From Escherichia coli (GTDB lineage: Bacteria > Pseudomonadota > Gammaproteobacteria > Enterobacterales > Enterobacteriaceae): a stretch of DNA of 64,000 nucleotides. Below, in pieces: positions 60,026-64,000 of this stretch. Location: NCBI RefSeq assembly GCF_044324785.1, contig NZ_CP172127.1; one strand, given 5' to 3'. How positions within the stretch are numbered: position 1 is the stretch's first letter; the number at the start of each line of letters is the position of its first letter. A model generated the notes under the pieces. It ran no database searches and was not told the DNA's origin. It saw only the letters and a program-made list of their open reading frames with translations. The position numbers were made by a program, and so were the translations under genes.

Positions 60026-62094
<2,069 letters not shown>

Positions 62095-62097
62095 ATA

Positions 62098-62127
62098 AAA
62101 CGGGAGGCGAAGGTGCCTCCCGTTTTA
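62098..62127. terminator. bidirectional terminator after envZ, overlapping antitoxin stop
   Basis: cgggaggc-gaaggt-gcctcccg followed by tttt. Confidence 0.7.
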
Positions 62128-62421
62128 GATTGTTTTCAATTGATTGATAATGAAAGGATTCGCTTGCAAAAGCAGGAGCAATTTTCGGGGTGCTCCGGTA
62201 GGTTGACGGCGTTTGGTTTCCCAGCTTTTGACCAGGTCATAACTTACCCCTACGGCGACAGCAAAATCTTGCTGACGTAAACCCGTTGCTTCACGGATCG
62301 CTTTTACATCGATCTCGCTATAAGTATGGACGTGCTCTGGTTCAGGCGTTTCTTCACCCTTTTCGATGCGTACCATTTCTTCTGCGCTGGCAAGAAGATC
62401 AGCAAATAATTCGTCTTTCAT
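62125..62421 (-). CDS. HTH (XRE-type) antitoxin, HigA-like
   Basis: 98 aa, helix-turn-helix LRQQDFAVAVGVSYDLVKSWE, downstream of toxin. Confidence 0.7.
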   Translation of the reverse strand: MKDELFADLLASAEEMVRIEKGEETPEPEHVHTYSEIDVKAIREATGLRQQDFAVAVGVSYDLVKSWETKRRQPTGAPRKLLLLLQANPFIINQLKTI

Positions 62422-62479
62422 CTGTTTTCAATGCCTCCGTTGGCATTTCGGCCATGGTGGAATTTGTGGAGCTTCAACA

Positions 62480-62797
62480 TTAAAGCAGCTTCTCGGACAA
62501 TAGTTTCAATGCCTTTCTTTGTTCTTCTGTTAAATCATCCTGTTCATTTTTAGGATAAATCAACGCCAGATAAATTCGGCCATTGCGTGTTACGTTGTAA
62601 TAAATTATCCGAATGCCACCCCGTTTCCCCATTCCAGAACGGTTCCAGCGAATTTTTCTAAAACTGCCTGTGCCTGCGATAATGTCACCGGCAGTGGGAT
62701 CTTGAATGAGTAGTTCCTGAAAAGCCCGGAACTCATCATCAGGTAACAATAACTGGCGGCGTTTGCTAAATCCTTGTAGTTCAATAAACGTGAACAT
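62480..62797 (-). CDS. RelE/ParE-superfamily toxin, HigB-like
   Basis: 105 aa basic protein ...GIRIIYYNVTRNGRIYLALIYPKNEQ; toxin-first arrangement. Confidence 0.65.
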   Translation of the reverse strand: MFTFIELQGFSKRRQLLLPDDEFRAFQELLIQDPTAGDIIAGTGSFRKIRWNRSGMGKRGGIRIIYYNVTRNGRIYLALIYPKNEQDDLTEEQRKALKLLSEKLL

Positions 62798-62829
62798 AAT
62801 GCATCCTGCGGTCTATTGATAATTATAAG

Positions 62830-62842
62830 TGTACCGTGTACA
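62830..62842. promoter_or_regulatory. inverted repeat TGTAC-N3-GTACA in TA promoter (candidate autoregulatory operator)
   Basis: read directly, 33-45 bp upstream of toxin start. Confidence 0.4.
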
Positions 62843-62863
62843 TATTGGTAGCTAATTAGATAT

Positions 62864-62894
62864 AAAAAAACCCCTTATCCGTTTGGATAAGGGG
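62864..62894 (-). terminator. pckA rho-independent terminator
   Basis: ccccttatcc-gttt-ggataagggg with 7-T run on minus strand. Confidence 0.75.
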
Positions 62895-62913
62895 GCAATG
62901 AGATTTCAGCTGA

Positions 62914-64000
62914 TTACAGCTTCGGACCAGCCGCTACCAGCGCGGCACCCGCTGGGGTGTCGGTGTATTTATCGAAGTTGTCGATAAACAGTTTTGCCAG
63001 CGTTTCAGCTTTTTCCTGCCACTGTTCCGGAGAAGCGTAGGTGTTACGCGGATCGAGGATCCTGGTGTCTACGCCCGGCAGTTCGGTTGGGATCGCCAGG
63101 TTAAACATCGGCAGAGTGAAGGTTTCTGCGTTATCCAGCGAACCGTTGAGGATGGCGTCGATAATGGCGCGGGTATCTTTAATGGAGATACGTTTGCCAG
63201 TGCCGTTCCAGCCGGTGTTAACCAGATACGCCTGCGCGCCTGCCGCCTGCATACGTTTCACCAGCACTTCTGCGTACTGCGTCGGGTGCAGCGACAGGAA
63301 TGCCGCGCCGAAGCAGGCGGAGAAGGTTGGCGTCGGTTCGGTGATGCCGCGCTCTGTACCAGCCAGTTTGGCGGTGAAGCCAGAGAGGAAGTGGTACTGG
63401 GTTTGATCGGCAGTCAGACGAGAAACCGGCGGCAGCACACCAAAGGCGTCTGCGGTCAGGAAGATAACTTTAGTTGCGTGGCCCGCTTTGGAAACCGGCT
63501 TAACAATGTTATCGATGTGATAGATCGGATAAGAAACGCGGGTGTTCTCGGTTTTTGAACCATCATCAAAGTCGATAGTGCCATCTTCACGCACGGTGAC
63601 GTTTTCCAGCAGCGCATCGCGACGGATAGCGTTGTAGATTTCAGGTTCCGCTTCTTTCGACAGCTTGATAGTTTTTGCGTAGCAGCCGCCTTCGAAGTTA
63701 AACACGCCGTCATCGTCCCAGCCGTGCTCGTCATCGCCAATCAGGCGACGTTTCGGGTCGGTGGAAAGGGTGGTTTTACCGGTGCCGGAAAGGCCGAAGA
63801 ACACCGCAACATCGCCTTTCTCACCAACGTTGGCGGAGCAGTGCATAGAAGCGATACCTTTCAGCGGCAGCAGGTAGTTCATCATTGAGAACATCCCTTT
63901 CTTCATTTCGCCGCCGTACCAGGTGCCGCCAATCAGCTGCATGCGCTCGGTCAGGTTAAACGCCACGAAGTTTTCGGAATTCAGACCCTGTTCTTTCCAC
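62914..64000 (-). CDS. pckA: phosphoenolpyruvate carboxykinase (ATP), 3' part (5' end beyond window)
   Basis: C-terminal region with [10 protein letters not shown]-loop; ORF runs to window edge. Confidence 0.92.

Follow-up and report, generated by a model that had tools for sequence, protein, structure and literature searches.

A conserved GTAC-N3-GTAC palindrome as the putative autoregulatory operator of a chromosomal HigBA2-type toxin-antitoxin operon in Escherichia coli

Does the short palindrome preceding a chromosomal toxin-antitoxin gene pair of Escherichia coli act as the operator of these genes, or is it a fortuitous repeat in AT-rich DNA? The initial annotation of the 64-kb stretch analysed here (hereafter, the window) had reported a perfect TGTAC-N3-GTACA repeat at positions 62830-62842, located 33-45 bp upstream of the toxin start. 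Both statements were borne out, since the plus strand reads TGTACCGTGTACA at this place, i.e., TGTAC-CGT-GTACA with perfect 5-bp arms and a 3-bp spacer (the minus-strand reading being TGTACACGGTACA), and the toxin ATG is at position 62797 on the minus strand. The palindrome is flanked by G on its 5′ side and T on its 3′ side, strict complementarity ending at the 5-bp arms. This site is the single match in the window to TGTACNNNGTACA and also the single match to the core GTACNNNGTAC.

Taken by itself, the palindrome of the window is no better than chance. A perfect repeat with 5-bp arms and a spacer of 0-10 bp appeared in 64% of the shuffles of the 73-bp AT-rich stretch that extends from the pckA terminator to the toxin ATG, the 5-N3-5 geometry appeared in about 12% of the shuffles of the same stretch (P about 0.12), and 83 perfect 5-N3-5 repeats are present in the window as a whole. 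The palindrome is significant only because it is conserved in related loci.

The palindrome belongs to a 0.8-kb insert carried on the minus strand between envZ (60742-62094, plus strand) and pckA (minus strand, stop at 62914). This insert contains a toxin gene of 105 aa (62480-62797, minus strand) located ahead of an antitoxin gene of 98 aa (62125-62421, minus strand), 58 nt apart on the same strand. The toxin ATG is preceded at 6 nt by a Shine-Dalgarno-like AGGA (62804-62807, minus strand), whose position is kept in the alignments as AGGA or AGGGA. On the upstream side, the intrinsic terminator hairpin of pckA (62871-62894, minus strand), recognised by a terminator scan, by its inverted repeat and by the pckA stop, is followed by a T-tract and stands directly upstream of the inferred promoter. 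On the downstream side, the terminator scan identified a hairpin with 13-bp perfect arms (62096-62127, both strands) as a bidirectional terminator common to envZ (plus strand) and the toxin-antitoxin operon (minus strand). The cassette was found in 1331 of 5426 complete E. coli genomes (about a quarter), always on the chromosome, its carriers including UPEC and probiotic strains.

The gene pair is a toxin-first type II module of the HigBA2 type, consisting of a HigB-2-like toxin and a NadS/HigA-2-like antitoxin. Gene order, HigB-2 homology and the organisation of the antitoxin, with an N-terminal segment and a C-terminal XRE helix-turn-helix, all agree with this assignment. The toxin, a HigB-2 homologue of the RelE/ParE superfamily labelled RelE/ParE family toxin in RefSeq, matched the Vibrio cholerae HigB-2 structures 5ja9 and 5ja8 over residues 3-100 (E=1e-23; 1.3e-23 for 5ja9) and narrowly passed the Pfam model PF06296 (27.6 bits for a cutoff of 27). 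It would function as a ribosome-dependent mRNA endonuclease neutralised by the antitoxin. The antitoxin gene is named nadS in the RefSeq annotation of E. coli, and its product belongs to the NadS family according to the NCBIfam equivalog model NF041265 (76.8 bits for a cutoff of 60, residues 5-96), with additional Pfam matches to HTH_3 and HTH_31. It was aligned over its full length with V. cholerae HigA-2 at 27% identity, with E=2e-4 for the single sequence and 4e-9 for a profile of 23 sequences. The best structural matches in the PDB for its AF2 model (pLDDT 86.6), in which residues 2-20 form a helix, were HigA2: the C-terminal domain superposes on 5j9i with TM 0.75-0.83 and rmsd 1.6-2.4 A, a further match being the C-terminal domain of MqsA (3fmy, TM 0.78). 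V. cholerae HigA2 itself obtained 36 bits on the NadS model, under the cutoff of 60, so that the window antitoxin falls in a sister subfamily of the characterised HigA2. The initial annotation had referred to HigA-type antitoxins; the antitoxin of the window is of the HigA-2/NadS type and not the classical HigA of Rts1.

Two further assignments were considered and discarded. The module is not MqsRA, as the antitoxin of 98 aa is devoid of cysteine, and thus of a CxxC motif, and the half-site sequence is unlike AACCT-N3-AGGTT; on the model TIGR03830 the antitoxin matched by its helix-turn-helix part alone (model positions 64-126, E=1.8e-7, 31 bits for a cutoff of 61.8). The idea that E. coli YiaG (PRK10072) might also read the motif was dropped; on the PRK10072 model, the antitoxin of the window scored under the cutoff. 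Our literature searches on NadS as an antitoxin, on the E. coli locus and on its RefSeq protein accessions returned nothing relevant. A gene annotated nadS by PGAP has been reported in E. coli K-12 BW25113, its expression being detected in a PIRT-Seq screen (PMC12350097).

To evaluate conservation, we used the alignment of antitoxin homologues to scan one genome per species and thus obtained 80 loci from Enterobacterales, Oceanospirillales, Aeromonas, Idiomarina, Serratia and others, with antitoxin identities ranging from 99% to 42%. Exact TGTAC-N3-GTACA sites numbered 73 within 520 bp upstream of the antitoxin start (56 of 79 loci), as compared with none in the 354 kb that remained. Of the core GTAC-N3-GTAC, 102 copies were recovered upstream (69 of 79 loci, 2.5 per kb) and only two elsewhere (0.006 per kb). 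Among the loci with a recognisable toxin N-terminus, all 49 carried the core at no more than 140 bp upstream of the toxin, a situation encountered in 0.14% of shuffled regions. Where no site was found, toxin and promoter were mostly deleted or the contig ended.

The spacer of the exact sites is free, with 36 different triplets among 71 distinct sites, and the arms are invariant, partly by construction since the logo was conditioned on exact matches; the unbiased measures are the enrichment and the count of 49 out of 49. The bases directly beside the exact sites are a purine (R) on the 5′ side and a pyrimidine (Y) on the 3′ side, and the G...T flanks of the window site agree with this family-wide R-TGTAC-N3-GTACA-Y. 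The related loci are not recent copies of a single sequence: they vary in their spacers as well as in their flanks, and the identity of the antitoxins falls as low as 42%. Only six of the 80 loci are located between pck and envZ, so that the motif goes with the cassette rather than with its genomic surroundings, and in related loci it is confined to the 5′ side of the cassettes, never flanking them on both sides. As for the antitoxins, the DNA-reading segment S-x-[DE]-x-x-K-S-W-E-x-x-R-R is kept across the family. We observed no clean pattern of co-variation between recognition-helix residues and the outer operator bases (e.g., GGTAC...GTACC or CGTAC...GTACG). Judged from these alignments, the association of fixed arms, free spacer and co-inheritance with a helix-turn-helix gene is the classical footprint of a putative dimeric repressor site.

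The position of the site relative to the promoter was examined in a register table of 30 loci, i.e., 29 Enterobacterales loci and the window. The hexamer separated by 2 nt from the upstream end of the promoter-proximal 13-mer resembles TTGAnn (T1 in 26/30 loci, T2 in 26/30, G3 in 17/30, A4 in 17/30) and the hexamer located 2 nt after the 13-mer corresponds to TAnnnT (T1 in 26/30, A2 in 27/30, T6 in 28/30). With the order -35, 2 nt, 13-mer, 2 nt and -10, the operator would thus exactly fill a 17-bp spacer. At the window locus, the inferred -10, a perfect TATAAT (62822-62827, minus strand), begins 2 nt downstream of the palindrome, with the same offset as in related loci, and the -35-equivalent position is occupied by TACCAA (62845-62850, minus strand), which matches the consensus at two positions out of six and represents a weak or absent -35. 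A scan for consensus sigma-70 promoters called none on the toxin-antitoxin strand of the window because of this poor -35; the window promoter is a putative one, placed by homology and register with related loci alone.

In most of the tabulated loci, a further site is present upstream at a distance of 29-31 bp, or roughly three turns of the helix, and falls just past the -35. The lineage with the cassette between pck and envZ (E. coli, E. albertii, Citrobacter, Kluyvera) has the proximal site alone; its -35 is weak, its -10 agrees fully or nearly so with the consensus, and the place of the distal site and of the -35 is taken by the pckA terminator. At the window locus we detected no second degenerate operator 24-31 bp upstream or downstream of the site with one mismatch allowed, the space being taken up by the pckA terminator. 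The E. coli allele is a reduced version of the family architecture: it has one site, and both the distal site and a good -35 are missing, apparently since nothing separates the start of the cassette from the pckA terminator.

We consider it very probable that the palindrome is the autoregulatory operator of this chromosomal HigBA2-type operon, bound by the antitoxin dimer to repress both genes. The operator reading proposed in the initial annotation gained support from the occurrence of the same palindrome before every one of the 49 homologous modules that bear a toxin, in unrelated contexts and in several orders of Gammaproteobacteria, the operator itself remaining a putative one. An antitoxin dimer would bind the 13-bp site with one helix-turn-helix per GTAC half-site; since the site is enclosed by the -35 position and the TATAAT -10, whose spacer it fills, the bound dimer would exclude RNA polymerase and toxin and antitoxin would be repressed together. 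By analogy with HigBA2 of V. cholerae and Acinetobacter baumannii, the affinity would probably be tuned by the bound toxin and by the N-terminal part of the antitoxin, which is disordered in these systems. Whereas the sequence, the gene family, the conservation of the motif and its register with the -10 and -35 boxes are shown directly, we infer from these comparisons that the antitoxin binds and represses, where transcription starts and what the toxin contributes.

The best characterised system for comparison is HigBA2 of V. cholerae, whose operator TGTACGC-N5-GCGTACA was mapped by footprint, co-crystal structure, ITC and reporter assays (PMC11006873). For HigA2 alone, the KD is about 25 nM, and repression was observed in vivo; the operator begins after the -35 and extends over the -10, binding is strengthened by the disordered N-terminal region of HigA2, and the contacts involve A3, G5 and the partners of C4 and C6 in the 17-mer, i.e., ACGC (PMC11006873). 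Structures of HigA2 with the operator have been deposited as 8a0w and 8a0x, the latter being that of the HigB2-HigA2 tetramer. The V. cholerae module and that of the window are homologous and both toxin-first, with the same antitoxin fold and a single palindrome between -35 and -10 whose outer pentamers are TGTAC and GTACA. However, the V. cholerae arms are 7 bp long with an inner GC/GC that is absent from the 5-bp arms (core GTAC) of the window, and the TGTAC pentamers are 9 bp apart in V. cholerae and 3 bp apart in the window; moreover, V. cholerae has one operator whereas many relatives of the window module have two. The window site was thus not assigned to the V. cholerae HigA2 operator type, the bases that follow TGTAC being unconserved over the 71 distinct sites; it combines the position of the V. 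cholerae operator with an MqsA-like spacing.

The residue correspondence was drawn from sequence alignments. HigA2 R68 corresponds to D62 of the window antitoxin (D or E in the family), E71 to K65 (nearly invariant), N72 to S66 (invariant) and R77 to R71 (invariant). Since three of these four contact residues differ, as does the half-site spacing, the recognition mode seen in the HigA2 crystals is not simply transferable to the NadS antitoxins.

PmqsRA carries paired palindromes, and MqsA reportedly regulates other genes that carry its motif. The MqsA operator in E. coli PmqsRA is 5′-AACCT-N3-AGGTT-3′ (PMC4894380); MqsA shares with the window the 5-N3-5 geometry, a related C-terminal XRE helix-turn-helix and a toxin-first module. 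It differs from the window module by its half-site sequence, by its N-terminal zinc-binding domain and by its toxin, MqsR, which is not HigB-2-like. The plasmid-borne HigBA2 of A. baumannii resembles the window module by its type (HigB2/HigA2): its HigA2 autorepresses, with HigB2 as co-repressor, and its operator sequence was left undefined in that work (PMC5906591). Finally, the E. coli YefM-YoeB operator consists of paired 5′-TGTACA-3′ hexamers separated by 12 bp from centre to centre (PMC1802561). It resembles the window site as a GTAC-containing palindromic motif at a toxin-antitoxin promoter conserved across homologous cassettes, but the YefM antitoxin has an unrelated Phd/YefM fold, its module is antitoxin-first, and the hexamers are 12 bp apart instead of 7 bp for the tetramers of the window. 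We thus did not classify the window site as a YefM-YoeB operator, since it consists of one 13-mer, in which 7 bp separate the GTAC cores, and genes other than yefM and yoeB follow it.

Several other explanations of the palindrome have to be weighed against the antitoxin operator. That of a repeat without function would fit the abundance of short inverted repeats in AT-rich intergenic DNA, visible here in the shuffles (64% and 12%) and in the 83 repeats of the window, but the same arms precede the toxin in 49 of 49 toxin-bearing loci (0.14% of shuffles) and exact copies number 73 upstream of the antitoxin versus none in 354 kb, which effectively refutes this explanation, the least credible of all. 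Reading of the site by a regulator other than the cognate antitoxin, such as YefM-YoeB or a global factor of the host, is very unlikely as well. The YefM operator cores are indeed TGTACA (PMC1802561) and the minus strand of the window site begins with TGTACA; nevertheless, the centre-to-centre distances differ (12 bp for the hexamers, 7 bp for the GTAC tetramers), the base that follows TGTAC is not conserved, yefM is not found beside the site in the window, and, in different orders and genomic contexts, the motif accompanies genes of the NadS family. We attributed a slightly lower likelihood still to a role at the nucleic-acid level, in which the repeat would form an RNA or DNA hairpin (attenuator, processing site or part of the pckA terminator) or mark a recombination or boundary site of the cassette. 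In favour of such a role, 28 bp separate the site from the pckA terminator, and the insertion at whose edge it is found is an accessory one (1331 of 5426 E. coli genomes). Yet the stem would have just five pairs and a loop of 3 nt, folding of the 76-nt region was not better than that of its shuffles (z=+1.27), Rfam gave nothing above threshold, and in related loci the motif is present on the 5′ side only and mostly not beside pck. Furthermore, the site would be mostly untranscribed from its own promoter because it is upstream of the inferred -10.

A different case is that of an operator for which the toxin-antitoxin complex would be the effective repressor, the antitoxin alone being weak, so that the site would sense the toxin:antitoxin ratio. 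This possibility refines the main explanation, and we regard it as a tentative one that we do not favour. It would be in line with the co-repressor role of HigB2 in A. baumannii (PMC5906591), with the structure of the HigB2-HigA2 tetramer on its operator (8a0x) and with the paired sites 29-31 bp apart of many relatives, which would suit cooperative higher-order binding. On the other side, HigA2 of V. cholerae, taken by itself, has a KD of about 25 nM for its operator and acts as a repressor in vivo (PMC11006873), and the E. coli allele has a single site.

Variation within E. coli provided information on the antitoxin operator from another angle. With a 101-bp query around the operator, we obtained 108 genomes in the 90-95% identity band, and all five sampled members of this band (CFT073, Nissle 1917, AF20, RM14723, and 2015C-4136CT1) carried a 7-bp deletion that changes TGTACACGGTACAC into T-------GTACAC and removes one half-site (window equivalent 62830-62836). 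This deletion looks like a slippage between two copies of GTACAC. The same five genomes exhibited a clustered 3-nt substitution, GATGAG to AAGTAG (window 62732-62740), that turns toxin codon 22 into a stop, and the toxin nonsense allele was present in 107 E. coli genomes. Conversely, the three intact-toxin alleles sampled all retained the palindrome despite other nearby changes. The operator deletion and the toxin nonsense mutation probably form a single haplotype and thus one or at most two evolutionary events. Their joint presence would be expected if operator and toxin were functionally coupled, either causal direction being possible; the operon may have escaped repression once a half-site was lost, and the nonsense mutation in the toxin may have been selected as a consequence. 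If true, this haplotype would be a natural record of operator function. In any case, the operator-deletion allele is a natural one directly comparable with the intact allele. About 107-108 complete genomes of E. coli share the haplotype (seen in loci L082, L083, L087, L088, and L089), among them CFT073, Nissle 1917 and ATCC 25922, and the antitoxin gene is intact in it.

The site defines a precise candidate operator, R-TGTAC-N3-GTACA-Y with the core GTAC-N3-GTAC, for a widespread and uncharacterised HigBA2-like subfamily; in the literature open to our searches, we came across no earlier description of a GTAC-N3-GTAC operator for the NadS subfamily. The element is an ordinary kind of control site and leaves the general view of toxin-antitoxin autoregulation unchanged. 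The close relatives V. cholerae HigA2, MqsA and NadS differ in half-site spacing, which bears on the specificity and cross-talk of XRE antitoxins. The recognition helices of NadS may be about 2 bp closer than those of V. cholerae HigA2, as in MqsA. Because the site is identical in the cassettes of Enterobacterales, Oceanospirillales, Aeromonas and Idiomarina, NadS antitoxins could also cross-regulate one another or other genes bearing the motif. A reading that joins all these elements, namely a compact GTAC-N3-GTAC site read by NadS antitoxins unlike that of V. cholerae HigA2, possible cross-regulation, and a toxin nonsense mutation driven by half-site loss, seems to us rather unlikely to hold as a whole.

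Some variations on the family architecture were observed in Oceanospirillales. Symmetric outer-base variants, GGTAC-N3-GTACC or CGTAC-N3-GTACG, were present in loci L040, L041, L044, L045, L050, L051 and L052, either at promoter-distal sites or, in some loci, at the sole site. Relative to the toxin ATG, the Oceanospirillales sites are centred on positions near -26 and -50, 24 bp apart (versus 29-31 bp), GGTAC...GTACC being frequent at the distal one and the proximal site abutting the ribosome-binding site. The antitoxin gene also occurs with a deleted or truncated toxin in several species, corresponding to orphan NadS regulators (around positions 2300-2500 in each of the loci that follow); GTAC-N3-GTAC was retained directly upstream in three such loci (L009, L019, and L031), and both toxin and operator were lost in four others (L029 and L021-L023).

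Other repeats were noticed in the window insert. The AT-rich palindromes ATAATTAT (62820-62827, overlapping the -10) and CTAATTAG (62852-62859) are located around the operator, with arms of 4 bp only and no conserved counterpart among the related loci aligned, and were treated as composition effects. An exact 11-nt direct repeat, TTTCAATGCCT, is present at the 3′ end of the toxin gene (62504-62514) and just before the antitoxin start (62426-62436). The gap between the two genes (62422-62479, 58 nt) is long as compared with some relatives, in which it ranges from -11 (overlap) to more than 100 nt; the work on V. cholerae (PMC11006873) and on A. baumannii (PMC5906591) describes no internal operator or promoter between the toxin and antitoxin genes. 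The hairpin downstream of the operon (62096-62127) has T/A runs on both sides and includes the antitoxin stop codon in its stem, and it gave a sub-threshold Rfam match to sraA (26.6 bits for a gathering score of 56). Lastly, the envZ-pckA intergenic region (62095-62913) is a variable spot: at least one strain, 2017-02-2CC (L081), carries a gene of the SMI1/KNR4 family after envZ instead of the cassette, the envZ terminator (33 bp) being the only part that it has in common with the window at this place.
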